A stretch of DNA of 64,000 bases, taken from the NCBI GenBank assembly GCA_024236395.1, contig JACKKO010000001.1:17345-81344 (forward strand), in the 5' to 3' direction. Below are positions 23,858 through 45,236 of the stretch, in pieces; within the stretch, counting starts at the first letter, position 1; each line of letters opens with the position of its first letter. The position numbers and the translations under genes were made by a program. The notes beneath the pieces were generated by a model. That model ran no database searches and was not told the origin of the DNA. It saw nothing but the letters and a program-made list of their open reading frames with translations. The stretch comes from Hyphomicrobiales bacterium. Lineage in GTDB: Bacteria > Pseudomonadota > Alphaproteobacteria > Rickettsiales > JACKKO01.

Positions 23858-26800
23858 TTAAGCCGCTTTGCTTAGACCAATTTTTAGAGCCAGCCCATCC
23901 AGTGCACTTTCTGAAACATGGGTTTCATTGGCAGCATCTTCTGTGCTCAGTGCCTCTGCCAGCGTCTGGGATTGCACATAATCCCGGTTAGCCTCCAGCG
24001 CCGCCCGTACTGTATCCGGGCCTTCCACTGCTAACCGAATCGTATCGGAAATATGCAACCCGGCCGCTTTACGGGCCTCCTGCACCAATCGCACGATATC
24101 CCGCGCGATACCTTCGGCCTTCAGTTCCGGCGTGATTGCCAGATCCAGCACCACCAGCGCGTCGTTGCTGGAGAGCGCCTGTGCGCCCTTGATGCCCGGC
24201 TTTGCTTCCAGCTTGATTTCGTATTCGCCGTCCTGCAGCATTTCGCCCCCGGCTTCCACAGCACCATCGGCGTGCACCTGCCAGTTGCCCTGGCGGGCCG
24301 CACCAGCCACCGCTTTCATTTTTCCACCCAGTCGCTTCCCGGCCACGGGGAAAAAGATCGCCAGCGTACGCTCTGCCACACCTTCCAGCGCATCGGAGAA
24401 CTGCACCTGCTTGACGTTGATTTCATCGGCAATCAGTGCCGCAAAAGGCTTCAGACGTTCCGCCCCCGCGCCCAGGAAAGTGAGGGACGCCAGCGGTTGC
24501 CGCACCTTGGCATTTGCCCGGCTGCGTACCGCCAGTGCGGCGGTACATACATCGCGCACCCGGTCCATATCCGCCATCAGATCAGCCTCTTCCGGAATCG
24601 CCGACACCTCCGGGAAGTCCTGCAGATGGAGGGATGCACTCTCGCCGCCCTGCAATCCCTGCCAGACGGCTTCCAGTGTTAGTGGCAGCAACGGGGCGGC
24701 GGCACGGCACATCAGCTGCAGTACGGTAAGAAGCGTATCATACGCGGCCTGCTTATCCGAATCGGGAATCGAGAACCGGGAATCGGGAATATCGCTTCCT
24801 GATTCCGGTATCGCCCGCCAGAACCGGTCGCGGCTGCGGCGAATATACCAGTTATTCAGCACCTCAAAGAAATCCTGCACCGCCTGGCAGGCATGCGGTG
24901 TATCAAAGGCCGCCAGCGCCGAATCAATCATCTCCACCGCCTGCCGGCATTTGGCGAGGATATAACGGTCCATGAGGCTGGTTGATGATTGATGGTCTGT
25001 GGTTGATAGTGCGAGTAATGACCTGGCCTGCACCCCATCGGCATTGGCATAGAGCGTGAAGAAATGATAGGCGTTCCAGATCGGCTTGATGGCCAGCCGC
25101 ACCACGTCGCGAATATCGCTGCCGTCGGTACTGACAATCAAATCCCCGCCATGCATCACATTACCGGAAATCAGGAACCAGCGCATGGCGTCCGCGCCGT
25201 AGGTATCGAACATCTCCACCGGGTCAGCGTAGTTCTTCAGGCGCTTGGAAAGCTTTTTATGCCGGCCGAATTCGTCTTTCTGCTCGCTCAGGATCACCCC
25301 GTGGCAGATACAGTTCTTAAACGGCTCACGGTCAAATAACGCGGTGGAAAGCACCATCAGCGTATAGAACCAGCCGCGTGTCTGCGCCACATATTCCACG
25401 ATGAAATCCGCCGGGAAATGCTGCTCAAACCAGTCCTTATTTTCAAACGGGTAATGCACCTGCGCAAACGGCATGGAGCCGGACTCAAACCAGCAATCAA
25501 ACACGTCCGGCACGCGCCGCCAGACTTCACCATTTTCCTCTTTTATCAGGCTATCGATGAAGGGCTTATGCAGATCCGTTATTGTATAACGCCCCTGCTC
25601 CGGCTTACTAGCCTCCGCATTGGGCTTTAGCTCAAGGCTGCCGGATTTTACTAAATCCGCTTTTTGTTCCTCGCTCATGCTAGGTAAAAAGAACTCTTCC
25701 AACTCGGCAATGGAGCCAAACACCTTCACCTGCCCGCTCTCATTCTTCCAGACCGGGATCGGCGTTCCCCAGAAGCGGTTACGGGAAATCGACCAGTCCC
25801 GTGCATTTTCCAGCCAGTTGCCAAACAACCCGTCGCGGATATGGCCGGGAATCCAGTGGATATTCTGGTTCAGTTCCACCATGCGCTGCTTGAATTTCGT
25901 TACCTCCACATACCAACTGGGCACCGCTTTATAAATCAGCGGCTTGTCCGTCCGCCAGCAATGGGGATAATTGTGGACAATCACATCCTGCCTGATCAAT
26001 TGCCCGCGCTGCTTCAGCCAGTCGATGATCCGCAGATTCACCAGCCCGAATTTCTGCAGCTGTTCGTCTTTGTACGGCTCATCACCGGCTTTTTCCGTCG
26101 CTGCGATGACATTCAACCCTTGCAGTTTCAAATCCGGCAGATCAAAAATCTCTGCCGTATACGCGCCTTTTTCATCCACCGGACACACGATATCAATCCC
26201 GTGTTCGGCACAGACGCGCTGGTCATCCTCCCCGAATCCCGGCGCCAGATGCACCACGCCCGTGCCCTCGCCCTCTTCAATGAAATCCGCCGGAAGCACC
26301 CTAAACGCCTTCGGCTGGTCTTTGAAATACGGGAACAGCGGCTCATACGAAAGGCCGATGAGTTCATTTCCAGAAATAAATGTAATTCCTGTGTTGGTAA
26401 AATCCTCGATATGCTGCTCCGGAATTAATAGTATGTAGTAATACTCACCGTCATATGAGTATACCTTAACTTGTTTGTTTTTAGACTCTTTTGATTTTTC
26501 TAAAGAATTATTATGATTGAAACCGTAAGATCCCGTTTCAGCTATTAATATTTTATTATTTTTCTTAACTTTCTCATTACTACATCGATATCCTAGACTT
26601 TTAATTGACCTTATAAAGCAATTCTTTCCTTCCAAGTAGACTGCGTAGTCCATCTCTTCACTCACCGCCAACGCCAGATTGCTCGGCAATGTCCAGGGGG
26701 TGGTTGTCCAAGCGAGGAGGTAGTAATTTTCTGCTTCACACACGGCTTTAATTTTTTTTGGTATCTCCTTCAGCTTAAACGCCACGGTGACGGCTTTATC

Positions 26801-27550
26801 CTCACGTTCGCGGTAGGAATTATCAAGCCGGGTTTCAAAATTGGAAAGTGGGGTTTCCGCCGCCCAGCTATAGGGCATCACGCGGTAGGACTCATAAACC
26901 AGCCCTTTTGCATGCAATTGCTTGAATGCCCACAAGACCGATTCCATGTAGTCCCGGTCCATGGTTTTATAGTCATTATCAAAATCCACCCAGCGGGCCA
27001 CCCGGTGAATATAACGTTGCCACTCGCCGGTATATTTCATCACGCTTTCGCGGCAATGCGCGTTGAATTTATCCACACCGAATGCCTCAATCGCCGCCCG
27101 GCCGGAAATCCCCAGTTGCTTCTCCGATTCCATCTCCGCCGGCAGCCCGTGGCAATCCCAGCCAAAGCGGCGCTGCACGCGGTGGCCTTTCATGGTCTGG
27201 TAACGCGGGTACACATCCTTCACGCAAGAAGTCAGCAAATGCCCGTAATGCGGCAACCCGTTGGCAAAGGGCGGGCCATCGTAAAAAATCCATTCGTTGG
27301 TAACATTACCTCCCGCTTCGGCCTCCTTGCCTTCGCAATGAGGCGCGCTCAAGGCTGACTCGGACGTACTGTCCTCGCTCTTATTTCCCGATTCCCGATT
27401 CCCGGTTCCCTGTTCTGGTATTATCGCTGGACGCTGCACAACCGAAGCCTCAAACGTATGCTCGGCGTCCCATTGCTTCAGCACCTGCTCTTCCAGTTTG
27501 GGGAAGTCCGGGCTGGAGATGATATCGGGATAATAGGGTTTTTTGCTCAT
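23858..27550 (-). CDS. ileS: Isoleucine--tRNA ligase, type 2 (eukaryote-like) with lineage-specific insertions
   Basis: HIGH motif PHYGH, KMSKS variant KLSKRLKN, and editing-domain WTTTPWTLPSN. Start placed at MSKKPYYPDI (ATG 27550). The listed ORF continues to 27817, but that extension overlaps the divergent bufA gene. Confidence 0.9.
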   Translation of the reverse strand: MSKKPYYPDIISSPDFPKLEEQVLKQWDAEHTFEASVVQRPAIIPEQGTGNRESGNKSEDSTSESALSAPHCEGKEAEAGGNVTNEWIFYDGPPFANGLPHYGHLLTSCVKDVYPRYQTMKGHRVQRRFGWDCHGLPAEMESEKQLGISGRAAIEAFGVDKFNAHCRESVMKYTGEWQRYIHRVARWVDFDNDYKTMDRDYMESVLWAFKQLHAKGLVYESYRVMPYSWAAETPLSNFETRLDNSYREREDKAVTVAFKLKEIPKKIKAVCEAENYYLLAWTTTPWTLPSNLALAVSEEMDYAVYLEGKNCFIRSIKSLGYRCSNEKVKKNNKILIAETGSYGFNHNNSLEKSKESKNKQVKVYSYDGEYYYILLIPEQHIEDFTNTGITFISGNELIGLSYEPLFPYFKDQPKAFRVLPADFIEEGEGTGVVHLAPGFGEDDQRVCAEHGIDIVCPVDEKGAYTAEIFDLPDLKLQGLNVIAATEKAGDEPYKDEQLQKFGLVNLRIIDWLKQRGQLIRQDVIVHNYPHCWRTDKPLIYKAVPSWYVEVTKFKQRMVELNQNIHWIPGHIRDGLFGNWLENARDWSISRNRFWGTPIPVWKNESGQVKVFGSIAELEEFFLPSMSEEQKADLVKSGSLELKPNAEASKPEQGRYTITDLHKPFIDSLIKEENGEVWRRVPDVFDCWFESGSMPFAQVHYPFENKDWFEQHFPADFIVEYVAQTRGWFYTLMVLSTALFDREPFKNCICHGVILSEQKDEFGRHKKLSKRLKNYADPVEMFDTYGADAMRWFLISGNVMHGGDLIVSTDGSDIRDVVRLAIKPIWNAYHFFTLYANADGVQARSLLALSTTDHQSSTSLMDRYILAKCRQAVEMIDSALAAFDTPHACQAVQDFFEVLNNWYIRRSRDRFWRAIPESGSDIPDSRFSIPDSDKQAAYDTLLTVLQLMCRAAAPLLPLTLEAVWQGLQGGESASLHLQDFPEVSAIPEEADLMADMDRVRDVCTAALAVRSRANAKVRQPLASLTFLGAGAERLKPFAALIADEINVKQVQFSDALEGVAERTLAIFFPVAGKRLGGKMKAVAGAARQGNWQVHADGAVEAGGEMLQDGEYEIKLEAKPGIKGAQALSSNDALVVLDLAITPELKAEGIARDIVRLVQEARKAAGLHISDTIRLAVEGPDTVRAALEANRDYVQSQTLAEALSTEDAANETHVSESALDGLALKIGLSKAA
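24756..24790. repeat. Tandem heptamer array (tccgaat cgggaat cgagaac cgggaat cgggaat) inside ileS
   Basis: Read directly from the sequence. It translates on the coding (minus) strand to IPDSRFSIPDS. Confidence 0.8.
27384..27411. repeat. Tandem heptamer array of the same unit in opposite orientation (tttcccg attcccg attcccg gttccct) inside ileS
   Basis: Its reverse complement shares an identical 18-mer, GAACCGGGAATCGGGAAT, with 24773-24790. It translates to GTGNRESGN. Confidence 0.8.
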
Positions 27551-27571
27551 AGGCAGGGTTTTAGCCTGCCT
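27551..27571 (-). promoter_or_regulatory. Perfect 7-bp-stem hairpin abutting the ileS start codon
   Basis: AGGCAGG-gttttag-CCTGCCT occupies the 21 nt immediately 5' of the ATG. I see no obvious Shine-Dalgarno outside the stem. Confidence 0.3.
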
Positions 27572-27740
27572 GCGGCGGGAATGCCAGTCTTTTTCATTAA
27601 GGCAGCGGAATCCCGTTGGCATTCCGGCAAAAGCCATGTAACCTGCCCGCCGCCTGGCGCGAATACCAGGCAGATCGCCCCCAAATAGGTAATCATTAGG
27701 GGACATCGTTAGCGCAATGTTATTAACAACAGGAGACTGT

Positions 27741-28034
27741 ATGAAGAATTCGACAAAAATGCTGGCCGCCGCGGTGATGACCATGGGTGCTACTTCAGTA
27801 ATCGGCATGGCTGCCACCGCTGAAGAAGGTGCGGAGAAAGAAAAATGCTACGGCATTGTCAAAGCCGGGAAGAATGACTGCGGGGCCGCCGATGGTTCAC
27901 ATTCCTGTGCCGGCAGTGCCACGGCAGATAGCGGTGCCAATGAATGGATTTTCCTGCCCAAGGGCACGTGTGACCGCATTGTCGGCGGTTCTACCACCGC
28001 ACCAGGTGCTGAATCCGACGAATCCGCTTCCTAA
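27741..28034 (+). CDS. bufA: DUF2282 / BufA1-type bufferin RiPP precursor (Sec signal peptide, 4 conserved Cys)
   Basis: AGGAGA RBS 5 nt upstream of ATG 27741. Signal peptide MKNSTKMLAAAVMTMGATSVIGMAATA. Core EKCYGIVKAGKNDCGAADGSHSCAGS...EWIFLPKGTCDRIVGG matches the DUF2282 pattern. Confidence 0.8.
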   Translation: MKNSTKMLAAAVMTMGATSVIGMAATAEEGAEKEKCYGIVKAGKNDCGAADGSHSCAGSATADSGANEWIFLPKGTCDRIVGGSTTAPGAESDESAS

Positions 28035-28062
28035 GCGGTAAGGCGTACGTAGGGGAATCGCT

Positions 28063-28929
28063 GTGTCTGAGCGCATCGTTTCCCCTGCTCCGTCCCTTAC
28101 GGGTGTTGGCATCGGCCTGCGCCACCCCCATTTTCAGGATATCCTTGATACCCAGCCAGAGATTCCCTGGCTGGAAGTCCATCCGGAGAATTATTTTTTC
28201 CCTGGCAGTTCCGCCTGTCACTGGCTGGAGGCGATTCGTGCGCATTACCCCCTAAGCGCCCACTGTGTCGGGCTTTCGCTGGGCTCTGCCACACCGGTGG
28301 ATATGGAACATCTGGCCAGTTTGCAGGGTTTTATCGAACGTTACGCTCCGAGCCTCGTTTCCGACCATCTTTCCTGGAGTGCGGTAGACGGCACCTTCCT
28401 CCCGGATTTACTGCCACTACCCTATACCGAGGAGGCACTAACAGTGCTGTGCCGGAATATTAGCCAGGTGCAGGAATCGCTGAACCGGCAGATTCTGATC
28501 GAGAACCCTTCCAGCTACGCACAGTTTGCCGCCTCTTCCATCCCAGAATGGGAATTCCTTAAAGAAGTGGTGAAACGCAGCGGCTGCGGGTTGTTGCTGG
28601 ATGTGAATAATGTCTATGTCTCGTGTCAGAATCATGGCTGGAATAGTGACGTTTATCTTGAAGCCCTGCCGCACGAAGCGGTGCAGGAGTTGCACCTGGC
28701 AGGGTTCAGTATCTCCATAGAGGGCAATGACCGGCTGCTGATTGATACCCATAGCGCCCCGGTTACCCCGGAGGTGTGGGAGCTCTACGCCCAGGTCATT
28801 CGGAAACTGCCGAACGTACCGACACTCATCGAATGGGATAAAGACATCCCGCCACTGGCGACTTTACTGGCGGAAAAACAGAAGGCCGAAGCGATCGCCC
28901 GGGAGGAAAGTGTTCATCAGGCAACCTGA
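28063..28929 (+). CDS. bufB: DUF692 / MNIO-family (MbnB-like) RiPP maturase, BufB-type
   Basis: 288 aa. N-terminal GIGLRHPHF...[10 protein letters not shown], plus SDHLSW and IENPS motifs of the UPF0276/DUF692 TIM-barrel iron enzymes. It lies directly downstream of the DUF2282 gene. Confidence 0.85.
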
Positions 28930-30785
28930 GATCTGTGGCGTCCCCGCGCATGCGGTTCCTGTTCAAATAATTCCGTCAGTGCGCTGACCATGGTATCACC
29001 CAGCTCGTCAATTTCCCGGATGGTGATGGCCCGGCTATAGTAATCCCCCACATGATGGCCAATACCAATCGCCAACAACTCCACGGCCTGTGCACGCTCA
29101 ATCTCGTGGATGACGTCCCGGAGATGCCGATCTAAATAATCCCCGGTATTGGCGGAAAGCGTACTATCATCCACCGGCGCACCATCGGAAATCACCATCA
29201 GGATTTTACGGTTCTCCGCCCGCGCCAATAACCGCTGATACGCCCAGAGCAACGCTTCACCGTCGATATTCTCTTTCAGCAGCCCTTCCTTGAGCATCAG
29301 CCCCAGATGTTGCCGTGTCCGCCGCCAGGGAGCCCCGGCCGGTTTATACACAATATGGCGGATATCATTCAGCCGTCCGGGGTTCGGTGGGTTACCGGCT
29401 GCCAGCCAGTCCTTCCGCGACTGGCCGCCTTTCCACTCCACCGTGGTAAAGCCGAGCACCTCCACTTTCACCCCGCAGCGCTCCAGCGTCCGCGCGAGGA
29501 TATCCGCGCACAGTGCCGCCACCGTAATGGGCCGCCCGCGCATGGAGCCGGAATTATCAATCAGCAAACTCACCACCGTATCCTTATCCCGCGAAGGATT
29601 CTCCCAGCGATAGGGCGTGGGAAAGGAAGGATCAATAATCAGGTTCGCCAAACGGGATGGATCCAGCATCCCTTCCTCGCGATTATACTCCCAAGAGCGT
29701 AGTTGCTGTGCCAGTAACCGTCGCTGCAACCGGTTGGCCAGACGGTGTGTAATATCCCTGAGGCCCGCCAGACGGTGATCAATCTGCCCGCGCAGACGGG
29801 TTAGTTCCTCTGGGCTCGCCAGCATATCGGCCCGTACCACCTCGTCATACACCACCGTATAGGCGCGGTAAGCCATAGGCTGATTACTCTGTCGCACCTG
29901 ATAACGCGGCATGGCACCGGAGGGGATTTCTGATTCGTCTTCTGCTTCTGATGGTTTAGACGCCACCTTCGGCAATGGTGCCTTATGCTGCGGGTGGGCT
30001 GGGGCCGGGCTGGCGGTTTCCTCCACCATAGGGGCATCCGCACCAGGCAGCGTATCCTCTGCCGGTTGTTCTTCCTGCTCCCCGCTGGCACTGGCTGCCG
30101 ACGCATCCTGTGTTTCCACCTGCTCGCTGGCACCGTGGGGCAGGGAAAGCCGTGCCATCATCTGCAACATCAACCGGGCGAATTGCGCCTGATCCTCCAG
30201 CGCTGTATGTACATCCGGCAGTTGCTTCGCCAACTTCTTATCCAGAATAGCGCCCCAGCTTTTCAGGATGCGTGCCGCTTCCGGCGGCAATGCCTGCCCT
30301 TCCTGCGCACGCAGCAGAATTTCCAGCGCTTCGGCCATCGGCAAATCCTTGATCCGCGCCGGGTCGTGATAGCCATGCTGATAAAAACGCAGCACGTAGG
30401 CCGCTTCCAGATTCTTCGCCGCGCCGGGATAATACTGACTCCCCAGCAATTCCGTCCGTAAGCGTTCCATACGGTCCAGCCATTCTCCGGCAGTCCCTTC
30501 CCCGCGTAATTCCGCGTGGGTATGGGGATTATGCAGGCGCATCCATAACGCGGCGGCGTCGTAATGCCCGCGTGTACGCGCGAGATCTTCCGAGGTCAAT
30601 GGCTCCCGGATAGGAAGCACGGCCTGTTTTTCAGTACGGTCTATTGAAACCGGTGGAAGTACGGAACCGGAAGACACCGGCACGGTCTGGAATACTGTTT
30701 CCTTGATCGCTTCCCCGGCCAGTGCACGAAACGCCGCAGCCAGTGATTCGCGCGCGATGCCGGACTGGTCATCCCCTGATGCCAT
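28917..30785 (-). CDS. cobT: CobT-like protein (aerobic cobaltochelatase subunit homologue, C-terminal vWA domain)
   Basis: C-terminal vWA/MIDAS region ([11 protein letters not shown]). It is paired with cobS, whose stop lies 1 nt before this start. The 3' end overlaps the bufB 3' end by 13 nt (convergent). Confidence 0.8.
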
Positions 30786-30786
30786 A

Positions 30787-31776
30787 TCAGGCCGCCATGG
30801 TTTCCGGCAATTCCATACCAAAACAGCGCTGGAAATATTCCGCAATGGTGGCGCGCTCCAGCTCGTCGCATTTATTCAGGAAGGCCAACCGGAAGGCCTG
30901 CACCAAATCGCCCCCAAAAATCTGCTGGTTTTCTGCCCAGGCAATCACCGTACGCGGCGACATCACCGTGGAAATATCGCCCTTGGCAAATCCTTCCCGC
31001 GTTAGCCCGGCCAGCCGTACCATGCGTTCCACTTCCTTGGGCTTGGCTTTGGCAACTTTGGCCCGTATAATCTTGACTTCCTCCTCCTGTGGCAGGTAGT
31101 TCAGCTGCACCACGATATTCCAGCGATCCATCTGCCCCTGGTTAATCGGGTTGGTGCCGTGATACAGTCCGCTGGCATCACCGAGCCCAATCGTGTTAGC
31201 CGTAGCAAACAGGCGGAAATTTGGGTGCGGTGTCACCACCTTATTCTGCTCGGTCAATGTCAGCCTGCCGTGTGATTCCAGCAAACGCTGGATGACAAAC
31301 ATTACGTCCGGCCGCCCGGCATCGTATTCATCAAACACCAGTGCAATCCCATGATGCATGGCAAATGGCAGCAACCCTTCGCGGAACCGCGTGACCTGTT
31401 TTCCCTCTTCCAGCACGATAGCATCCCGGCCAATCAGATCAATCCGGCTGATATGCCCATCCAGATTAAGCCGGATCAGTGGCCAGTTGAGACGTGCCGC
31501 CACCTGCTCGATATGGGTGGATTTACCCGTCCCGTGATAACCCTGGATCAACACCCGTCGGTTATGCACAAACCCGGCCAGAATCGCCCGGGTACATTCT
31601 TCGTTGAAGTGGTAGTCCGGATCCATGGCGGGAGTAAACGTGGAAGGCTCTGAAAACGCCTTTATTTTCATATCTGGTTTTATATGGAATAGTTTAGAGG
31701 CAGAAACGCTTTTGGTAGGGGCTTCTTCCGGCGTTATTGGGTTTTCGTCCGTCTGGTTAATCATGTTTATTTCCAT
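30787..31776 (-). CDS. cobS: CobS-like AAA+ (MoxR-type) ATPase
   Basis: Walker [10 protein letters not shown] and Walker B ALVFDEYD. High overall conservation. The start is ambiguous (31809, 31776 or 31764). Confidence 0.85.
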
Positions 31777-31841
31777 TTTTGAGAATGTTAGCCGCGCGCA
31801 TACTGCCATATTCTGTGCCTAATGCCAAGCAGTATGCCCGC

Positions 31842-32420
31842 TTACGTAAAGAGGGGCGAGCGAACCAGAAGACGGTAAGCTTCGTTGATACGGCGGAAGC
31901 GTTCCGCGTGCCCGTTTTCACTATCGGGATGAAATCGCTTTGCCATTTTGCGGTATTGCCGCTTGATTTCCTCAAGGCTCACCGGCCAGCCCAGCGAAAG
32001 GATCGCCAGCGCCTTGCGTTCTTCTTCCCGCAGGCCGATGGGTATGGGCTTTTCCGGCATGGGACGCATGCCTGCACTATGCCGCCACTGTGCCGCCTGC
32101 TCCAGCAGGGAGGCCTGCATCGCCATGAAGTGGGCACGCGGCCACGTCGGCCGGTTGCCATAGACAATCTGATGCTGCAGTGTTTCGATTTCCTCGGCAC
32201 TGCGGCCGGAAAGATAATCCCACGCTTCATTATAGCGACGTATATGCTCCTGACAGAACATATATTCCTTCCCATCAGAGTACTCCGTCTTCACTGTTCG
32301 TGATGATTTTGGTGCTTTATACATGCCATTGCTACCGCACCCCGGCCAATCGCAAACCGGCGTGGCTTCCTCTTTTGGGAAAAATTGTACTCTGCTGATC
32401 GTGTGTTTAGGCATTGTCAC
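31842..32420 (-). CDS. J-domain-containing protein
   Basis: C-terminal J domain with an HPD motif (EIKRQYRKMAKRFHPD). It sits upstream of cobS. Confidence 0.75.
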   Translation of the reverse strand: MTMPKHTISRVQFFPKEEATPVCDWPGCGSNGMYKAPKSSRTVKTEYSDGKEYMFCQEHIRRYNEAWDYLSGRSAEEIETLQHQIVYGNRPTWPRAHFMAMQASLLEQAAQWRHSAGMRPMPEKPIPIGLREEERKALAILSLGWPVSLEEIKRQYRKMAKRFHPDSENGHAERFRRINEAYRLLVRSPLFT

Positions 32421-32461
32421 TGATTATGACGCAGCGCCTTATTTACGGCAAGGATTGTTTC

Positions 32462-33457
32462 TTAGTGGGTTATTTCAAACTGTTTTTTCTGAAATGAACG
32501 CTCTGCAAGGTATGAGCAATCCTCTTTATCACGATTCTCCTGCATGCTGTCTAGCCGAAGATTTTTTGCCTCTAGAAGGATAATATCTGAGTAATCCCCT
32601 TTATTAAATTGCATCGCCATAGCGTCTGTTATTGGTGTATCACATGTAAAGGTACAGTCTGATGGTACACGGATCTGCTTAAATTCATTCCATAATTTCT
32701 CCAGCTTAGGATATACCGGCTCACCCGGTGTATTAATCATATTCTCTACAACTGTTTCCTGCATCCTTTTGAGGAGAACACGTTGTTCAGAATGGGAAAA
32801 ATCAAATACCAGAAGCACCCTCTCGCCAAAATACGGGTGATTCCCGAGCCATTTATCTTTATATTTCCCCCAGTCAAACTCCGGATGCTTTTCTTCTAAC
32901 TCCTCCCATGCGGCTTGAGATACTTTCTTTTTATCCAGCCCCTGTTCCGTAAGGTACTTTGCCGCCAGATAATCCATATAGATATGGTCGTTTTTTGTGA
33001 CGCGCGAAATATGCTGGAACGTTTCTTTACTTAAGTTGAGATACCTGTCCATATCCACGCGGGTTTCTCTCACTCTTACCGCCATCGCCGCGAACGATCC
33101 CAGCAGTCCCATCTGCTGGTCCGGTGAAGCACTCAGTAATTTTTTCATATCCTTAGTAAATTGTTCATCAAAGCTAATAACACCTGAAGCCTTGAAATAC
33201 TTACCGCGAACCACCTCTGCTCTTTTCTCAAACTCACCCAGAATTTGATACTCATCCTTTATCTTGCTTTCTAATTGCTCCAGCAATACCGGGTTTAATG
33301 TTTTGCCATCTGCATTGGTAACGTGGTCTCTGATAATTCTTTGTAATGCCTCATAATCCTCTTCAGGCATGACATCTTTCAGCGCCCTGAGCGCACGGGC
33401 AAAGGTTATCAGGCTTTTTATCTGTGGCGGTTGAGGTTGGGAAATAGCGTCATTCAT
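32462..33457 (-). CDS. Hypothetical protein, 331 aa
   Basis: Long ORF in an AT-rich segment. No motif recognised, and no signal peptide or TM segment. Confidence 0.5.
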   Translation of the reverse strand: MNDAISQPQPPQIKSLITFARALRALKDVMPEEDYEALQRIIRDHVTNADGKTLNPVLLEQLESKIKDEYQILGEFEKRAEVVRGKYFKASGVISFDEQFTKDMKKLLSASPDQQMGLLGSFAAMAVRVRETRVDMDRYLNLSKETFQHISRVTKNDHIYMDYLAAKYLTEQGLDKKKVSQAAWEELEEKHPEFDWGKYKDKWLGNHPYFGERVLLVFDFSHSEQRVLLKRMQETVVENMINTPGEPVYPKLEKLWNEFKQIRVPSDCTFTCDTPITDAMAMQFNKGDYSDIILLEAKNLRLDSMQENRDKEDCSYLAERSFQKKQFEITH

Positions 33458-33540
33458 ATGACTGCATTATACAAGAATTTAATTAAAACTTTATTAACAG
33501 CGCGCTGTATTTTAGTTGTAAATTCTTTGCAAATTCAACC

Positions 33541-34734
33541 CTAGCGCGGATTTAGGCGAAAGCGCAGTGCATTGAGGCGAATAAAGCCCGCGGCATCACG
33601 CTGATCATAGGCAGTATCTTCCTCAAACGTGGCAATATCAGAATTATAAAGACTGTTGGGTGATTTCCGGCCGATTACCGTAGCACACCCTTTATAGAGC
33701 TTTACTTTTGCTGTTCCTGTTACCCGCTGCTGACTATGATCGATTGCAGCTTGTAACATCTCCCGCTCCGGCGACCACCAATAGCCATTATAAATCAGTT
33801 CTGCATAGCGCGGCATCAACTCATCTTTCAGATGGGCCGCCCCGCGATCCAGCGTCAGGCTTTCCACCGAACGGCGCGCTTCCAGCAGGATCGTCCCGCC
33901 CGGCGTTTCATACACGCCACGGGATTTCATCCCCACATAGCGGTTTTCCACGATATCAATCCGCCCTACTCCATGCTTACCGCCCAGCGTATTGAGCGCT
34001 TCCAGCAACGCGGCAGGCGATAATTTTTTGCCATTGACCGAAACCGGGTCACCCTGCTCAAAATCAATTTCGATGATTTCCGGTACGTCCGGCGCAGCCT
34101 CCGGAGCGACACTCCGGGTAAACATACTCTCTTCATAGGGTTGCCATGGATCTTCCAGTACGTTACCCTCATAGGAGGTATGCAGCAGGTTTGCATCCAT
34201 GGAATACGGTGGGGCATTGCGCTTTTCTGCCGGCACTGGAATATTATGATCGCGGGCAAACGCCAGCAGTTTGGTGCGGGAATTCAAATCCCACTCACGC
34301 CAGGGTGCAATGACCTTAATATCTGGCTTGAACGCGTAATAACCCAGCTCAAACCGCACCTGGTCATTTCCCTTCCCGGTGGCACCGTGTGAAACGGCAT
34401 CCGCACCGGTTTCCAGCGCGATTTCAATCTGGCGCTTGGCAATCAGCGGCCGGGCGATGGACGTCCCCAGCAGATATATACCTTCATAAAGCGCATTGGC
34501 ACGGAACATCGGGAAGACGTAATCCCGCACGAATTCTTCGCGCAGATCTTCAATATATATTTCCTTGATGCCCGCAGCCTCGGCTTTGGCACGCGCCTCT
34601 TCCACCTCACCCCCCTGTCCAAGATCAGCCGTAAATGTCACAATCTCGCAATCATAGACATCACGCAACCAATGCAGAATCACCGAGGTATCCAGACCGC
34701 CGGAATAGGCCAGTACTACTTTCTTCACTGTCAT
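33541..34734 (-). CDS. argG: Argininosuccinate synthase
   Basis: N-terminal [11 protein letters not shown]-loop and full-length conservation over 397 aa. Confidence 0.93.
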
Positions 34735-34759
34735 AGGGACTTATCTAGGGGGTGCCGCG

Positions 34760-35083
34760 CTAGGCGTCAACGGTTTCTTTTGCAGTTTCCTTATGCCGAT
34801 CTGCTTTGACACGTTTTTCAGCATCACGACGTTCTTTCGCCGTCATTTTAACCATTTTCTGGTTCTTAGTATCCCATCGGTACTGATAAACAACGGTTTT
34901 CGTGCCGGTTGTAATAATATCGCCATTTTCCAGCTGCAGAACATCAAAGCCTTTTTGCAGCGCATCAGTGATGATTGACGAAGATTTTCGCAGATATTCA
35001 GCATCCTGCATCAGTTCAATACCAGATGTAGTATCGTCAGATGTAGTGCTATTCTTGATAATCTCTTTAATGTCACGTATCAT
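34760..35083 (-). CDS. Hypothetical protein, 107 aa
   Basis: AT-richer ORF 25 nt upstream of argG. No family recognised. Confidence 0.45.
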   Translation of the reverse strand: MIRDIKEIIKNSTTSDDTTSGIELMQDAEYLRKSSSIITDALQKGFDVLQLENGDIITTGTKTVVYQYRWDTKNQKMVKMTAKERRDAEKRVKADRHKETAKETVDA

Positions 35084-35234
35084 GGCTAGAAAGTTTAACT
35101 CTTTGTTAATACGTCAAGAATACGGTTAATTTATTCAGGGGTCAAGCAGGAAGTCGCCATCTTGTTATAAACTCGTGGTAGAACAATTCTGTGTGATGCT
35201 AAAATGCGGCACTGCATAGCTTCACACTCTTATC

Positions 35235-36665
35235 TTAGAAACTATACCGCACCCCGGCATAGATATTGCTCGTATCCTCAAACTGCCCAAAGAAGGAGGT
35301 ATGGCGCTGGCCGTAAAATAGGTTCAGCCCTGTCTCCAGTTGCCAGTGGTCGTCCAGCTTGTAATTGACGCTGGCACGTGTATACCCGTCACCTGCCGAG
35401 GGGCTGTAGAAATTAAACAGGGAAAGTTTCAGGTTCTGCTGCATCAGCAGCTGGGTCAGACGCAGGGTCAGCACCTGGTGATTTGCATCCTCTACCACCG
35501 CCCCAGCCGGCAGGCTTTGCCGATAGGCCGTATGATCCTGCATATGCTCTATGTAATATTGCATTGACCCGGTTAATTCCGGCACCAGCTCCTGCTCATA
35601 CCCCACCAGCACCCGCCATTCGCTGTTACGCACCAGCGGGTTGACACCTCTCCGGTCATCGCGGCTGTCATAATAACCAAGTTCGGCATTGGCAATCCCT
35701 GCCAGCACTGGCCCACGTACACTGGCACCATAGACGGAAAGACGCGGGAACGTATACCGCCCACTTAAAGGGTTCTGCCCGGCCGGGCTTTTCCAGTAGC
35801 CCTGATAGTAATAGAGCGCGGTTTCATAAGCCTCTACCAACCGGTGCAGACGCAGCGCCAGTTCATCCCCATGGAACCAGCCATCCCGCGCCTCGGTATT
35901 TACCGGAAGGTTTCGCCCCGCCACCGAGCCAGCTCCGGCATTGTAATACGAGATGCGCCGCCCATCGATAAAACGGTCAGCATCAAAGCGTGGGGTATAC
36001 ACCACATCCAGATTCACTTCCGGGTGATAAAACGCCAGCTTCACCGCATCTGAAGGCGCTTTCAGATATTCCACATCGCGCCCGATGAAAAAACTGTTCC
36101 AGTCCTTCGGGAATAAATCGTTGATGAAAAGCAGATCGCCCGTCCCCCAGGTCAGAATCTGCCGCCCCAGCTTCACATCCGCATTCTCAGCCGGACGGAA
36201 AAGCACATAAGCCTCACGTACATCCAGCACCCCGTCTCCATTTTCCAGATCGGGTTCGTATTCATCTGCCACCGGATCATAGAGCAGGTCCCCGCTCAGC
36301 CCTACAGTCAACGATTCGTTACTCTGGAGAGCCTGGAGGTGTAAGCGCCCTTCGCCCAGGCTAGCGCGTTTCTGCTGCGTATCCCGATGCAGGCGCATGC
36401 CATAGCGCGTCTCTATGAACCCACTCAGGTCAAACGGTAATGCATCCCGCCACACATCTGCCCGCTCTTGCGCAACGGCTTCCTCTTTATTGCCATCCCC
36501 AAGACCCATCGGCAGCGATGGTTCGGAAGAAAGCCCTTGCGGTAACGCTGGCACATCTGCAGGCGATACCACGCCCAGTCCCATAGGCAGGGCGGGCTCT
36601 TCTGCATGTGCGACCGGGTTCAGAAGCATACACCCCAGCAGAGAAAAGAGCACCGGTCGCTTCAT
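35235..36665 (-). CDS. Outer-membrane beta-barrel protein (porin-like) of the RND/LolA-like cluster
   Basis: Signal peptide, alternating beta-strand pattern and terminal ...GVRYSF. The N-terminus carries three (P)ALP(M/Q)GL(G/S) repeats. Confidence 0.6.
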   Translation of the reverse strand: MKRPVLFSLLGCMLLNPVAHAEEPALPMGLGVVSPADVPALPQGLSSEPSLPMGLGDGNKEEAVAQERADVWRDALPFDLSGFIETRYGMRLHRDTQQKRASLGEGRLHLQALQSNESLTVGLSGDLLYDPVADEYEPDLENGDGVLDVREAYVLFRPAENADVKLGRQILTWGTGDLLFINDLFPKDWNSFFIGRDVEYLKAPSDAVKLAFYHPEVNLDVVYTPRFDADRFIDGRRISYYNAGAGSVAGRNLPVNTEARDGWFHGDELALRLHRLVEAYETALYYYQGYWKSPAGQNPLSGRYTFPRLSVYGASVRGPVLAGIANAELGYYDSRDDRRGVNPLVRNSEWRVLVGYEQELVPELTGSMQYYIEHMQDHTAYRQSLPAGAVVEDANHQVLTLRLTQLLMQQNLKLSLFNFYSPSAGDGYTRASVNYKLDDHWQLETGLNLFYGQRHTSFFGQFEDTSNIYAGVRYSF

Positions 36666-36674
36666 GGGTATTCC

Positions 36675-37460
36675 TTATCGCAGGTATTTCCGTGGGGCCG
36701 CACGCAGATAGCGCTCGGTGAAAATATCCTCCGGCAGTCCGATATCATAGCCAACTTTGCCGTATTCCATGACCGTATACCCACCAAGATTCTTATCCGA
36801 CATCTTAGACTGCGTCACCGTGGCATGCCCATCAATCGTATCCACCTTCAGCGCCTCATAGGTACGATACGCGGTATCGGCACTGTCATAGAATTCCGTT
36901 TTCACCGGGATAAAAGTCGTCTTATGAATCCAGTTTTTGTAATAGGCAAATTCCACCGCGTCCTTTTTCTTCGGCACACTTTTCAGCACGTAGAAATTAT
37001 CGGTTTCCTCCACCAACGTATGCGTATCCTCACTGGGGGTGCGGCCGGAAACATCTTCATAGAAGAAATGCGACCCCACAAAACTGGTGCGCTCATCGCT
37101 GGCAGCGATCCGTTTCACCAAATCCAGCGCTGGCAAATATAGCCAGCGGTCATCCTCTGCCTTGGTATGTTTCCATACCAGAAATGCCGTTTTATTGACG
37201 TCTGCCGGGCGGGAAAAATACACGTAGAATTTCTGTTCGGTATCCCCCTTATCGTCCGTGTCGGTACGCAGGATCGTGAAATCGCGCGTGCGCTCGCGGC
37301 CCTGCGCATCCGTAATCACCATATGCACGCTGGCACGGCCATCCTTACCCTGATAATAGGCGGCATGATTTGCCTTCGCCACAATCTCCTCCACCGAAAG
37401 CGCCCAGGCCGGCGTGGTGAGCAATGCCAGCAGAATGGTCAGTATATATCGACTACGCAT
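36675..37460 (-). CDS. Outer-membrane lipoprotein-sorting (LolA-like) protein
   Basis: Signal peptide MRSRYILTILLALLTTPAWA. The sequence pattern is that of LolA_like proteins usually found next to MMPL/RND exporters. Confidence 0.7.
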   Translation of the reverse strand: MRSRYILTILLALLTTPAWALSVEEIVAKANHAAYYQGKDGRASVHMVITDAQGRERTRDFTILRTDTDDKGDTEQKFYVYFSRPADVNKTAFLVWKHTKAEDDRWLYLPALDLVKRIAASDERTSFVGSHFFYEDVSGRTPSEDTHTLVEETDNFYVLKSVPKKKDAVEFAYYKNWIHKTTFIPVKTEFYDSADTAYRTYEALKVDTIDGHATVTQSKMSDKNLGGYTVMEYGKVGYDIGLPEDIFTERYLRAAPRKYLR

Positions 37461-37462
37461 AT

Positions 37463-40042
37463 TTAGTTCCCCTTCTTCTTGTTCTTAAACAGGGTTTTTT
37501 CAAAAAGTGCAATCAGCGCAGGCAATAATAACAGCGATGCCGCTCCCGCAATCACCAGTATCGCCGAGATGAAGAATCCCACCGTCTGATACGGCACCAA
37601 CGGCGCGGCCAGCAACGGCAGGAAGCCCATACCGATCACGATCACATTTCGCGCAATGGCGCGGGAAGGCTCCCCGAATATCGCGGGAATCGCTTTTTCC
37701 CAACTGCCATACTGCGCCACCATCTCGCGGCTCCGTGCCAGGAAATGAATGGCATAGTCCACGGCCAGCCCCAGGCTAAGCGCCGAGAGCACCGCCACCG
37801 GCATGTCGTAATCTTTCCCGACCAGCCCGATCACCCCATAGATCAATGCGATCGTCACGGTTAGCGGAATCATTGAAAGAATCCCCCACCATAGCGACCG
37901 GAACAGGAACACCATCATCACCAGCACAATCACAAAACTCCCGGCAAACGCTTCCAGCATTCCTGCCACCATCTTCTGTTGCCAGATGACATTGATGTAG
38001 GTCAGGCCGAACCATTGATGGGTTAAGGCCAGCGGCGGGGGATTATCAGCGATAAACGCATCCACCGCATCCACCAGCTGCTGCATGTCTTTGTTGTCAC
38101 CACTCTTCAGCTGAATCCACAGATTCGTCTTGCGGTAATCCGGCGTCACAAAATGCCAGAGATCCTGCGGGCGGTGACTGCCCTGATAGGTAATCAGGGT
38201 TTGCGCGACCGCCGCCGCTGTATCCGGAATATGGAACGCATCTTCCTTGCCAAGGAATAGCTCACGGTGCACCGTCTTCACCACGTCTGGCAAGGCGTTG
38301 CTTTTTCCCACCAGCCCGGTCGTCAGCATATGCTCCTGCAAGTTGGCGAGATAACGCAGCACGTCCGGACGTTTAAACACTTCCTGTTGTTGCTGCCTGG
38401 CTTCCAGCCGGAGTGCCACCGCATCCCATGCTTCCCAGTCAGCATCCGATACCGCGGCATCCTGCGCGGCAAGGATGGTTTCCTGCACGTCTTTCAGCGG
38501 ACTCCCCAGCAGAGGCTTTAGTACCGTAACGACCTGCTCTGGCAACCCGTCCAGATCTACCTCTTCTAGTACCGGCCCGGCCCCTTCGGGTGCTTCCAGC
38601 GTCAGGTACGCCATATACGTTCCGGCAAAGGCTTTATTCAGTGCTGCATCGGCCACGCGGATCGGGTGCTGTTCCTCAAACCATTTCACCGGGTTATCAT
38701 TGATGGTAATCCGGCTGATCCCATATGCTGCCACCCCACCAAGCACCACCGTGACCAGCAGGATCGCCTTCGCATAGCGGTAGGTCGCCGGCCCCATGCG
38801 CATCAACAGCCGCGCCAGCGGTGAGAGCGCCGCACCGTCTTCCCCCATGCCGAACCCTTCCAGCGAGCGCGCCGGCAGCAGCATGATATACGCCGGTACC
38901 AATGTCACTGTCAGCAGCCAGGCAAGGAACACACCGATAGCAATAAAAATACCGAATACCTGCACCGGCGGTATTGGCGTAAACGCCAGTGACCCAAAAC
39001 CCGCGCAGGTGGTCAGGGATGTGAACAACATCGGTTTAGAAAGCTCATCCATGACATGACGAAGTGTGTGTGTGCGGTCTTTTGTTTTCGGGTAACGATC
39101 AAAAAAATCCGAAAGAATATGCACTGCATCCAGCACCGCAATCGGCATGATAAAAATCGGGATCATGGAACTCATGATGTGCACCGTGTTCCCGGTGACA
39201 ACCAGCAGCCCCATCGTCAGGATTACGGAGATCATTGCCACAATCATCGGCGCGATAATCAGTGTCACGTGGCGGAAGAAATACCACATCAGCAGAAAGA
39301 TCAGCAGCATCGCCAACGGTGCAGAAATCGCCATCTGCTTGAACATCTCCACCCCAAACTGATCCTGCGCGATCGGCAGGCCGGTGATGTGGTAGGTATC
39401 CTTTGCTCCAATCTCGGCTATTTTAGCACGCAGCTTTTCGGCCACCGTGTAACTATCCGATTTAAACGCAATCGGCAGATAAAGCGCCAGTGCTTTTCCG
39501 TCCTCCGACACCAGCGTATTATTCAGGAACGGGATGTGCTTGGCTTTCATGGCAATAGACGCCGCCCCTTCCGGCGTTTCCGGTGGGGTTTTCATCAACC
39601 ATTCAAACCGCACCGTACCCAGCCCGGCCTGCTCGATATTATCCATTGTGGAAGGTGCAATCACATCCGCCCCAATCACACCGTGCCGAACCCCGCCTTC
39701 TTCCCATACCAGCGTTTTGGCGTAGTCCGTTAGAGCATGAATATCGCTTAACGACTGTGGATTAAACACCCCCTCGGGGCGGGCATCATTCACTACGCCC
39801 ACCACCACCATATCGTACATGGAAAATTCCGACTTCATGCGGTTATGGAACACGCGCACCGGCTCATCGCCTGCCAGCATATTTTCCGGGTCGGTATCAA
39901 TATGCAGCGGATTCAGGTACGCCGTCAGCGCAGGGAACACCACCGGTAGACCCACCAGCACCAGCATCAGCACACTCAGCACTACCGAACCCCTAAACCA
40001 CCCGGCAGGATGCCGGACCGCATGCTCCGAAAGTAATTGCAT
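37463..40042 (-). CDS. RND-superfamily / MMPL-type exporter, 12 TM with two large periplasmic loops
   Basis: 859 aa with duplicated 6-TM modules. An AGGAGG RBS overlaps the stop codon of the upstream DUF2892 gene. ATG at 40042. Confidence 0.85.
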   Translation of the reverse strand: MQLLSEHAVRHPAGWFRGSVVLSVLMLVLVGLPVVFPALTAYLNPLHIDTDPENMLAGDEPVRVFHNRMKSEFSMYDMVVVGVVNDARPEGVFNPQSLSDIHALTDYAKTLVWEEGGVRHGVIGADVIAPSTMDNIEQAGLGTVRFEWLMKTPPETPEGAASIAMKAKHIPFLNNTLVSEDGKALALYLPIAFKSDSYTVAEKLRAKIAEIGAKDTYHITGLPIAQDQFGVEMFKQMAISAPLAMLLIFLLMWYFFRHVTLIIAPMIVAMISVILTMGLLVVTGNTVHIMSSMIPIFIMPIAVLDAVHILSDFFDRYPKTKDRTHTLRHVMDELSKPMLFTSLTTCAGFGSLAFTPIPPVQVFGIFIAIGVFLAWLLTVTLVPAYIMLLPARSLEGFGMGEDGAALSPLARLLMRMGPATYRYAKAILLVTVVLGGVAAYGISRITINDNPVKWFEEQHPIRVADAALNKAFAGTYMAYLTLEAPEGAGPVLEEVDLDGLPEQVVTVLKPLLGSPLKDVQETILAAQDAAVSDADWEAWDAVALRLEARQQQQEVFKRPDVLRYLANLQEHMLTTGLVGKSNALPDVVKTVHRELFLGKEDAFHIPDTAAAVAQTLITYQGSHRPQDLWHFVTPDYRKTNLWIQLKSGDNKDMQQLVDAVDAFIADNPPPLALTHQWFGLTYINVIWQQKMVAGMLEAFAGSFVIVLVMMVFLFRSLWWGILSMIPLTVTIALIYGVIGLVGKDYDMPVAVLSALSLGLAVDYAIHFLARSREMVAQYGSWEKAIPAIFGEPSRAIARNVIVIGMGFLPLLAAPLVPYQTVGFFISAILVIAGAASLLLLPALIALFEKTLFKNKKKGN

Positions 40043-40051
40043 CAACGCCTC

Positions 40052-40252
40052 CTAGAACGCTGCACCGGGCTTGAACCCCAGCTTCTTCAGGATGATCGCC
40101 AGCGGACAAAAGCCCGTAAACGCGGCCTGAAGCATATTCAGCCCCACAAACCCTGTGAGAAAAAACCAGTACGGGTGCATAAAATACCCCAACAGCACAC
40201 TCCCCACAACCACCGTTCCGGCAAACGCCAGAATAAAACGATCAATATTCAT
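40052..40252 (-). CDS. DUF2892 (YgaP-like) small membrane protein
   Basis: 66 aa from [12 protein letters not shown]..., with a GGAGG RBS. Two TM helices and the conserved ...[13 protein letters not shown] end. Confidence 0.7.
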
Positions 40253-40347
40253 AGAACCTCCGAAACCGATAAGATTAGCTAGATATAATATTACCATCTT
40301 CTAATTTTATACTTTACTAATGTTACTAGTCAAGCTATCATTTCATC

Positions 40348-40674
40348 ATGGCATCTAAGAAATTATTTTTTGATACAAAAGACGGCGCCGCATTAATGAA
40401 AGCCGTGGATATGCTGAAACTACTCAGCAACCCGCACCGCCTGGCCATTCTCTGCCATATCGGTGAAGAAGCGCTTTCTGTTAATGAGATCGCAGAGCAT
40501 ATCGGTATGAGTCAGTCTGCCCTTTCCCAGCATCTGGCACGGCTGAAGAACGCCGGACTCGTCTCGTGCCGTCGGGAGCATAATAAAATCTATTACGCAC
40601 TCAGCAGCAAGGAAACCGAGTCCATCATTACCTTGCTGCGCAAACTTTATTGCCAATCCATCACGTCTTGTTGA
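40348..40674 (+). CDS. ArsR-family regulator, BigR/SqrR-like (candidate persulfide sensor)
   Basis: HTH core LLSNPHRLAILCHIGEEALSVNEIAEHIGMSQSALSQHLARLKNAGLV. Cys in helix alpha2 (AILCH) and near the C-terminus (LYCQSITSC). It lies adjacent to sqr. Confidence 0.75.
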   Translation: MASKKLFFDTKDGAALMKAVDMLKLLSNPHRLAILCHIGEEALSVNEIAEHIGMSQSALSQHLARLKNAGLVSCRREHNKIYYALSSKETESIITLLRKLYCQSITSC

Positions 40675-40698
40675 TACTACAGGAAAAGAGGGGGTATT

Positions 40699-41967
40699 AT
40701 GGTGCATGTTGTGATTATCGGAGCGGGCATCGGGGGCATTCCAGCCGCATTTGAAATCCGCGAAGCGCTGGGGACTAACGTTGATATTACTGTCATCTCC
40801 GATAGTGATACGTTCCATTTTGTTCCATCTAACCCGTGGGTCGCGGTTGGCTGGCGGAAACCGGAAGCCATCAAGATACCGCTTGCCCCCATCTTTCAGA
40901 AAAAGAATATCGCTTTTAAAGTCTCCGCCGCCAAGCAGGTACAGCCGGAAACCAATACTGTCCTGTGCGCGGATGGCGAAACCGTCTCCTACGATTATCT
41001 GGTGATTGCCACCGGGCCGGAGCTTGCCTTTGATGAAATCGAGGGACTGGGACCAGAGCATTATACCCACTCCATCTGCCACGTGGACCATGCCGAAAAA
41101 ACCTTTTCCGCCTGGCAGGATTTTATCGAGAATCCCAGCCATATTGTGGTGGGTGCCACGCAGGGCGCCTCCTGTTTTGGCCCGGCTTATGAGTTTGCCT
41201 TTATTCTGGATACGGAACTGCGTAAACGCAAAATCCGCCATAAAGTCCCCATGACCTTCGTCACCCCGGAACCCTATATCGGCCATCTCGGCCTGGGCGG
41301 TGTCGGTGATACCAAAGGATTGCTGGAATCCGCCTTACGTGAGCGGCATATCAAATGGATTACCAATGCCAAGCTTACGAAAGCAATTAAGGGCCACCTA
41401 CACGTCATGGAATGCGATGCCAAGGGTGAACCAGCTGCCGAGCATGTGCTGGAATCCCGCTACGCCATGTTCATTCCGCCCTTTAGAGGCATTCCTGCGG
41501 TTCGGGAAGTCAAAGGACTTTCCAACCCACGTGGGTTCATCCTGATTGATGAGTACCAGCGCAACCCTACCTACCCGAATGTGTATGCCATTGGGGTGTG
41601 CGTGGCCATTCCCCCGGTGGAAACGACGCCCGTCCCTACGGGTTGTCCCAAAACCGGCTATATGATTGAAAGCATGGTTACGGCCACGGCACAGAATCTA
41701 AAACAGGCCCTTCAGGGTGAGGCCCCCTCGCATAAAGCCAGCTGGAATGCGATCTGCCTGGCGGATTTTGGCGATACGGGTGTCGCGTTTGTAGCGCTGC
41801 CACAAATCCCACCACGCAATGTCAACTGGTCCGCTTCCGGTAAATGGGTGCACCTGGCCAAAATCGCATTTGAGAAATATTTCCTGCGTAAAGTCCGGAA
41901 CGGTGTCAGCGAAACGATCTACGAAAAATACCTCCTGAAAACCATCGGTGTCGAACGGTTGGAGTAG
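40699..41967 (+). CDS. sqr: Sulfide:quinone oxidoreductase (type I-like flavoprotein)
   Basis: FAD fold VVIIGAGIGG and redox Cys contexts GASCFGPAYE and TGCPKTG. 422 aa. Confidence 0.85.
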   Translation: MVHVVIIGAGIGGIPAAFEIREALGTNVDITVISDSDTFHFVPSNPWVAVGWRKPEAIKIPLAPIFQKKNIAFKVSAAKQVQPETNTVLCADGETVSYDYLVIATGPELAFDEIEGLGPEHYTHSICHVDHAEKTFSAWQDFIENPSHIVVGATQGASCFGPAYEFAFILDTELRKRKIRHKVPMTFVTPEPYIGHLGLGGVGDTKGLLESALRERHIKWITNAKLTKAIKGHLHVMECDAKGEPAAEHVLESRYAMFIPPFRGIPAVREVKGLSNPRGFILIDEYQRNPTYPNVYAIGVCVAIPPVETTPVPTGCPKTGYMIESMVTATAQNLKQALQGEAPSHKASWNAICLADFGDTGVAFVALPQIPPRNVNWSASGKWVHLAKIAFEKYFLRKVRNGVSETIYEKYLLKTIGVERLE

Positions 41968-41987
41968 TATGTTTGATGACCGCAAAA

Positions 41988-42063
41988 TGGTGATCCCGAC
42001 AGGATTCGAACCTGTGACCCACTGATTAAAAGTCAGTTGCTCTACCGACTGAGCTACGGGATC
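41988..42063 (-). tRNA. tRNA-Lys (anticodon UUU), CCA encoded
   Basis: Manual cloverleaf: acceptor GATCCCG/CGGGATC, D arm GCTC-agtcggta-GAGC, anticodon arm ACTGA-cTTTTaa-TCAGT, T arm ACAGG-ttcgaat-CCTGT. 76 nt. Confidence 0.9.
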
Positions 42064-44787: not shown

Positions 44788-44789
44788 AA

Positions 44790-45230: not shown

Positions 45231-45236
45231 GGTTCC

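Follow-up and report, generated by a model that had tools for sequence, protein, structure and literature searches.

Can an operon for a modified peptide be cut between the gene of the maturing enzyme and the gene of its obligate partner, and still serve as one system? This question is raised by a stretch of 64,000 nucleotides (nt) from a Hyphomicrobiales bacterium (positions 17,345 to 81,344 of contig JACKKO010000001.1, assembly GCA_024236395.1; assigned by GTDB to the lineage JACKKO01 of the Rickettsiales), hereafter the window, in which the four genes of a bufferin cluster are found in two separate places. The precursor gene bufA and the maturase gene bufB lie at one of them, while bufC, encoding the DUF2063-type partner of the maturase, lies together with doxX at the other. 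Bufferins are recently described and very widespread copper-buffering modified peptides, for which the genes of enzyme and partner are adjacent in nearly all cases. The best explanation of the locus as a whole, to which we assign a probability of about 0.72, is that one ancestral operon of the Buf1 type has been split, that its four genes have stayed intact, and that their products putatively function in trans.

The founding bufferin system is the buf1 cluster of Caulobacter vibrioides (bufA1-bufB1-bufC1-bufD1, CCNA_03363-03366), in which BufB1 and BufC1, purified separately, are both required and together sufficient for the formation of two thiooxazoles on BufA1 in vitro, and DoxX is dispensable for BufA1 modification (PMC11626156). 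An earlier annotation of the window, made from the letters alone (the sequence-only reading), had given both this gene order and the statement that an MNIO enzyme, together with a DUF2063 partner, forms the thiooxazoles, in agreement with the published work. The core of bufferin clusters in general consists of precursor, MNIO, DUF2063 and DoxX genes, the partner most often following the MNIO gene, and of the 4072 complete genomes in which DUF2282 genes occur, an MNIO gene is missing from only 21, while 27 possess it without a DUF2063 partner (PMC12452194). Such low numbers mean that the pairing is normally kept genome-wide.

Gene content of the two halves

The sequence-only reading had recognised a precursor with a Sec signal and the four-cysteine DUF2282 pattern, a DUF692/MNIO gene starting 28 nt after it and overlapping the convergent cobT gene by 13 nt, and the missing half of the operon at 49398-50691; profile searches and gene coordinates bear all of this out. 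BufA matches Pfam PF10048 with an E-value of 3e-25 (88 bits, cut-off 22) and has the four conserved cysteines C36, C47, C56 and C77; its N-terminus, as read by eye from the sequence, resembles a Sec signal, MKNSTK being followed by a hydrophobic run and ATA-EE, and its ATG codon is preceded at 5 nt by the ribosome-binding site AGGAGA. BufB was assigned to Pfam MbnB_TglH_ChrH (E-value 6e-107) and to NCBIfam NF050167 MNIO_BufB (383 bits, cut-off 310), and its best match among solved structures in a sequence search was the DUF692 protein 3bww (E-value 8e-41). Its 3' end is overlapped by cobT, the stop codon of which occupies positions 28917-28919. The bufB stop is separated from the bufC start by 20,468 nt containing about 18 genes, both halves being located on the same strand. 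BufC matches Pfam PF09836 (E-value 2e-19, 69.9 bits, cut-off 27.2) and DoxX matches PF07681 (E-value 1.5e-14, 54.8 bits, cut-off 23.6), which identifies the second half as the DUF2063 and DoxX genes. Neither BufC alone nor a profile of 13 sequences gave a meaningful match to solved structures, so the RRE-like (RiPP recognition element-like) fold was left unconfirmed by sequence search.

No further buf-like open reading frames (ORFs) were detected in the window. Exact-protein look-ups with BufC and with the 284-aa representative of the BufB cluster returned no record, and a metagenome scan with BufC peptides found no relatives. By every sequence criterion the cluster belongs to the Buf1-type bufferins, which are periplasmic copper chelators, the adjacency of the partner gene being the sole feature of the family that it lacks. 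All four buf genes are intact, and what we describe is a known system in a rare arrangement, not a new system.

Synteny with relatives and the ancestral operon

The sequence-only reading had placed the supposed break of the operon at the bufB/bufC junction and had suggested a comparison of synteny with relatives. For this comparison, 80 loci were taken from contigs of one genome per species (GTDB) encoding BufB relatives with 46-57% identity, and their ORFs were searched with the window proteins; six more contexts (L082, L083, L084, L090, L091 and L092) were added from the closest BufB homologues in a large protein collection. The nearest relatives found were L083 (SRR21758761), L084 (GCA_964644885.1) and L092 (SRR24236065), which rank top among 85 loci for BufA, BufB and DoxX. 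In all three the operon is contiguous and, as far as the contigs reach, has the same flanks as in the window. In L084, ileS on the minus strand is followed by bufA, bufB, bufC, doxX and valS; L083 has the same order with two copies of bufA, and in L092 the order is also the same up to doxX, after which the contig ends. Unlike the window, these unbroken operons include no ygaP-like gene. The window proteins are identical to those of the three relatives by 55-68% (IleS), 55-64% (BufA), 60-63% (BufB), 33-43% (BufC) and 45-68% (DoxX, 68% being reached with L084), and the ValS encoded after doxX is 66-72% identical to that of L083 and L084.

The outer flanks of the window halves match those of the relatives, ileS standing beside bufA and valS beside doxX. 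Since the window keeps both of these pairs as they are in the contiguous relatives, its two halves go back to one ancestral operon, and synteny shows the ancestral arrangement to have been ileS on the minus strand and bufA-bufB-bufC-doxX-valS on the plus strand. The break at the bufB/bufC junction, as supposed earlier, is thus supported by L083, L084 and L092.

One could also imagine that each half stems from an ancestral buf operon of its own, the complementary half having been lost in both cases. Genomes with several buf clusters do exist (PMC12452194; L090), and in L082 (4673-11408) the scoB-scoA genes are located 2.4 kb upstream of bufA-bufA-bufB-bufC, recalling their position just ahead of ygaP-bufC in the window. 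However, ileS-bufA and doxX-valS flank one and the same contiguous operon in L083 and L084 (ileS-bufA in L092 as well), DoxX (68%), BufA and BufB all find their best matches in the same relatives, and two reciprocal, exactly complementary losses would have to be postulated, so we regard such an origin as very improbable. The scoBA likeness may be a trace of older synteny, but we treat it as a coincidence; ileS-bufA are immediate neighbours in three relatives and doxX-valS in two of them.

The position of the cut can be narrowed down from both sides. The similarity of BufB to its relatives extends to ...KAEAI, and its C-terminus has the same length as in L084; the CobT tail, in turn, is of normal length, and its EPHARGR resembles the EEPHQARGR tail of the homologue P0247. 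Taken together, the end of BufB and the tail of CobT define the approximate left-breakpoint interval given in Table 1. On the right side, BufC can be aligned with its relatives from SLAQLQ onward, about 10 new N-terminal residues replacing the first two, and the new ATG codon of bufC lies inside an extra tail of the preceding YgaP-like protein. The ends of YgaP-like homologues and the SLAQLQ residues of BufC define the approximate right-breakpoint interval. In L083 and L084 the bufB stop overlaps the bufC start; in view of this overlap and of the breakpoint intervals, the cut passed essentially through the old bufB-stop/bufC-start overlap (within ~50 nt). Each of the two genes took its new end from the adjoining sequence. 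A single inversion is ruled out, as both halves are on the plus strand and in the original order. Possible mechanisms are a translocation, two inversions, or a duplication followed by loss.

The split is rare. The bufC gene directly follows bufB in 78 of the 80 loci and in all six added contexts; the two exceptions are L059, where the contig ends, and L069, with a solo MNIO gene behind an AraC-type gene. Overall, bufC is next to bufB in 84 of the 85 informative related loci, and in none of the 85 is an MNIO found apart from its partner protein. DoxX comes right after BufC in about 55 of the 80 loci.

Several deviating contexts were seen during this survey. The solo BufB-like MNIO of L069 (9037-10837, Steroidobacteraceae; 275 aa) is encoded behind an AraC-type regulator, and neither bufA nor bufC occurs within 10 kb. 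A Methylotenera locus (L007, 9911-12581) has the order bufB-bufC-bufA-doxX, and in three alphaproteobacterial loci (L047, L053 and L073) DoxX is encoded ~6 kb upstream on the opposite strand. In the metagenomic contig L090 (1174-6594), genes for an ECF sigma factor and an anti-sigma factor precede bufA-bufB-bufC-doxX, and after this first buf set comes, in tandem, a second small ORF accompanied by an MNIO-DUF2063 pair of its own.

Table 1. Features of the split bufferin locus and its surroundings (window coordinates)
Feature	Position	Strand	Remarks
ileS (isoleucyl-tRNA synthetase)	23858..27550	-	ORF; ancestral left neighbour of the buf operon
ileS/bufA divergent intergenic region	27551..27740		190 nt; presumed ancestral buf promoter region
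bufA, Buf1-type bufferin precursor	27741..28034	+	97 aa; Pfam PF10048 (DUF2282/BufA1)
bufB, MNIO-family bufferin maturase	28063..28929	+	288 aa; starts 28 nt after bufA
Left-breakpoint interval	28897..28940		From the end of BufB similarity; sequence from ~28940 belongs to the cobT block
cobT	28917..30785	-	Pfam CobT and CobT_C; 622-aa product, as in P0241
Segment between bufB and bufC	28930..49397		20,468 nt
scoA/ygaP intergenic region	48781..49168		Low GC; candidate promoter source for the second unit
Possible small lipoprotein ORF	48893-49105	+	70 aa; MKYLSLFFLALPAC...; without Pfam match
ygaP-like (DUF2892), two-helix membrane protein	49169..49417	+	Pfam PF11127, E-value 1e-21, residues 1-66 of 82
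Right-breakpoint interval	49372..49421		From the end of the shared YgaP-like region to the first aligned BufC residues
bufC, DUF2063-type MNIO partner	49398..50186	+	Pfam PF09836; full length
Variant C50045A	50045, in bufC	+	Y216stop, in L086 (ERZ28655713)
Variant C50056A	50056, in bufC	+	S to Y, in L085
Variant C50115G	50115, in bufC	+	P to A, in L085
doxX (bufD-type DoxX membrane protein)	50206..50691	+	Pfam PF07681; directly after bufC
valS	50716..53301	+	ORF; 24 nt after doxX; ancestral right neighbour

Three genes of this list were absent from the sequence-only reading, namely the ygaP-like gene overlapping bufC, valS after doxX, and ileS upstream of bufA. The ileS start (ATG at 27550, MSKKPYYPD...) agrees with the MTKKLYYPE start in L092. 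The window IleS (23858-27550) has ~1230 aa as compared with 1105 aa in L083, and contains extra low-complexity segments, e.g., a Lys/Asn/Ser-rich stretch in the part of the gene with lower GC content. Within the ileS/bufA intergenic region, positions 27570-27630 form an imperfect inverted repeat, GGAATGCC ... GGCATTCC, which may represent an operator or a leader structure of ileS; it had no match in Rfam, and a scan of the whole window against this database yielded tRNA-Lys as the sole match.

Authenticity of the junctions

Since the arrangement is odd and the other assemblies are fragmented, one might suspect that the contig is chimeric or was wrongly joined at 28.9 kb or 49.4 kb, and the sequence-only reading had itself allowed for an assembly error at the junctions. 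Independent contigs at both junctions exclude such an error. Contig L001 (GCA_020446765.1) contains the ileS-side sequence, bufA, bufB and cobT at 100% identity and thereby spans the left junction; bufA and part of bufB are likewise free of differences in L088 (ERZ28655713), which stops short of this junction. The right junction, with scoB, scoA, ygaP and bufC, is spanned and reproduced exactly in three assemblies, by L085 (GCA_020446765.1), L086 (ERZ28655713) and L087 (ERZ27309175), while the bufC end, doxX and valS are covered by L089 (SRR12358676). The probability of an artefact is, in our opinion, negligible.

The intervening segment and the ygaP-like gene

According to Pfam and to tRNA searches, the segment between bufB and bufC begins with cobT, cobS, genes of a J-domain protein, an unknown ORF, argG, and genes of DUF1302, LolA-like and MMPL/RND proteins, and continues with those of an FAD oxidoreductase, tRNA-Lys, an ABC ATPase, gshB, two ABC permeases, scoB, scoA, a small ORF and the ygaP-like gene. 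No integrase or transposase was found in 28930..49397, and neither terminal repeats nor junction microhomology of the block could be detected beyond chance 11-mers; the tRNA-Lys gene is located in the middle of the block and not at its border. The insertion of a mobile element or a genomic island is therefore ruled out, and the part from cobT to scoA is native chromosome, as follows from its housekeeping genes and tRNA and from the lack of mobile-element genes and end repeats. The GC content of the block is similar to that of the flanks, except for a 0.6-kb low-GC stretch at its right end (48.7-49.3 kb). Where the block was originally located is not recoverable from the CobT homologues listed, which are too distant (all with no more than 51% identity); every named one among them is alphaproteobacterial. 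On sequence grounds, the host is placed as a deep-branching alphaproteobacterium.

The low-GC stretch (48700-49300; 38-44% GC versus about 53%) harbours the possible small lipoprotein ORF together with the 5' half of the ygaP-like gene. Among the named homologues of this gene the best are mostly from Bacteroidota, so the stretch may be foreign DNA. Homologues of the YgaP-like protein are 67-72 aa long and stop a few residues past ...STC/NTC, whereas the window protein has 14 extra Cys-rich C-terminal residues, CCGGGCKKDSDAGNAA (49366-49417), which are missing in the homologues. This tail probably arose when the reading frame ran on into the junction sequence. The ygaP-like gene overlaps the bufC start by 20 nt and opens a tight ygaP-bufC-doxX-valS array, in which the subsequent gaps are of 19 and 24 nt.

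Such a position of the ygaP-like gene invites the idea that BufB acts without BufC or with some other partner, while BufC and DoxX have become tied to the YgaP-like protein, e.g., to its Cys-rich tail. The tail (CGKCCGGGCKK) is indeed new, Cys-rich and translationally coupled to bufC, and in L069 a BufB-like MNIO does stand alone, lacking any partner within 10 kb. On the other hand, Buf1 maturation depends on BufC in the one system tested, read-through into the junction sequence is the simplest origin of the tail, and none of the 80 related buf loci screened (0/80) has a ygaP-like gene. We consider a change of partners very unlikely.

Integrity, expression and possible function of the separated genes

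Among the columns conserved in at least 90% of relatives (78 relatives in the case of BufA), the window proteins keep 15 of 15 in BufA, 84 of 89 in BufB, including conserved His/Glu/Asp/Asn positions, 11 of 13 in BufC and 20 of 22 in DoxX. When scored against hidden Markov models built from the relatives, all four proteins fall within the range of the relatives; all are full length, and BufC can be aligned end to end with 12 relatives.

We suppose that bufA and bufB would still be transcribed from the ileS/bufA intergenic region, and that transcripts of bufC and doxX would begin upstream of ygaP and probably extend into the essential valS gene. The transcription of bufC is likely in view of its translationally coupled position in a compact array ending in valS. 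BufB and BufC would then meet in trans in the cytoplasm and modify BufA before its export by the Sec system, the two central cysteines of BufA presumably being turned into thiooxazoles by the MNIO and its DUF2063 partner, and the modified product would buffer copper. By analogy with Caulobacter, a function in trans is plausible, because separately purified BufB1 and BufC1 work together in vitro, and nothing known requires the two proteins to be made from one mRNA. Overall, the chances that the system still makes a modified bufferin seem to be even or slightly better.

Several observations weigh against a functional split system and in favour of its inactivation by the split, after which the halves would be mere remnants, possibly because a further complete buf locus at some other genomic site does the work. 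Compared with the same relatives, BufC has diverged further than BufB: it is 35-43% identical to them, as against 44-49% for the relatives with one another, and no comparable drop is seen for BufB. The ~19 kb of compared contigs, from five other assemblies, differ from the window at only three sites. These all lie within the final 47 codons of bufC and alter the protein, one of them being a nonsense allele. A rough calculation from the aligned lengths gives a probability of ~0.002 that all three single-nucleotide polymorphisms fall in bufC by chance, and their clustering could reflect relaxed selection on this gene. Short-read contigs also tend to stop within the bufC 3' end, where three of them terminate (50022-50205), and no repeats that could explain these breaks were found within the window; this suggests strain-level variation of the region and a possible hot spot. 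The frameshift in bufC of L085 is only apparent, being caused by a run of 39 N in this contig (49872-49909). As to expression, consensus promoter scans of both units gave no convincing site, the scores being at or near the shuffle expectation, and the same was true for a scan with the terminator consensus. No terminator would fit between bufB and cobT, so that bufB transcription would run head-on into cobT. Finally, the open reading frames may simply reflect a recent split.

Against inactivation stand the four open, full-length frames with their conserved residues, the usable and translationally coupled new start codon of bufC, and the lack of a second buf gene within the 64 kb analysed. Moreover, the variants are confined to a C-terminal tail that is missing from unbroken operons of the sister clade. 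BufC is short in L084 (194 aa, 2496-3080) and L092 (187 aa, 1896-2459), in which the operons are otherwise intact and contiguous; both proteins have an internal deletion of ~25 aa, lack the last ~40 aa and end within a few residues of Y216. The C-terminal tail may thus be dispensable in this clade, and the signal of relaxed selection is softened, since BufC of these unbroken operons ends near the tyrosine affected by the nonsense allele. We find inactivation unlikely, yet with enough in its favour to be taken seriously.

If the system is indeed operational, its split state could have been kept by selection, with BufC and DoxX produced constitutively together with ValS behind the acquired YgaP-like protein, and the precursor and the enzyme left under their own control. 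This possibility seems to us distinctly doubtful, and its version in which the Cys-rich tail of the YgaP-like protein serves as a second substrate is more speculative still.

Comparison with known systems

The window cluster consists of the same four families as buf1 of Caulobacter, and the order A-B-C-D is retained along the strand. It differs from buf1 in having 20.5 kb of unrelated genes between B and C, in the location of bufC within an array behind the ygaP-like gene and ahead of valS, and in that sigma and anti-sigma genes are not seen beside either half. HvfB/HvfC/HvfX of Haemophilus influenzae and MbnB/MbnC of methanobactin synthesis are similar in that an MNIO and a partner act on cysteines of a copper-binding product. 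However, the window proteins are below the curated cut-offs for HvfB (240 versus 360 bits), HvfC (34 versus 142) and HvfX (43 versus 80), and the enzyme is also below that for MbnB (57 versus 325), so an HvfB-type or methanobactin-type identity is ruled out. BufB is below the NCBIfam cut-offs for ApyH and ChrH as well.

Scattered systems for ribosomally synthesised and post-translationally modified peptides (RiPPs) share with the window the need for parts encoded at separate loci to meet in trans. Prochlorosin precursors, for example, are encoded far from ProcM. Among bufferins, precursor genes unlinked to MNIO genes occur (PMC12452194). In these cases the unlinked genes are those of precursors, whereas in the window it is the enzyme that is separated from its obligate partner.

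Concluding remarks

The locus reveals no new chemistry and no new type of system, and in this respect its interest is modest. For genome-mining pipelines it is a warning, as it would score as an orphan half-cluster. With intact genes and a recoverable ancestral state, the split represents a natural experiment on the co-transcription or co-translation of an MNIO and its partner; and if it has been kept by selection, C and D having been placed together with valS, it would provide a natural example of an MNIO that works with its obligate partner although the two are expressed from different transcription units.

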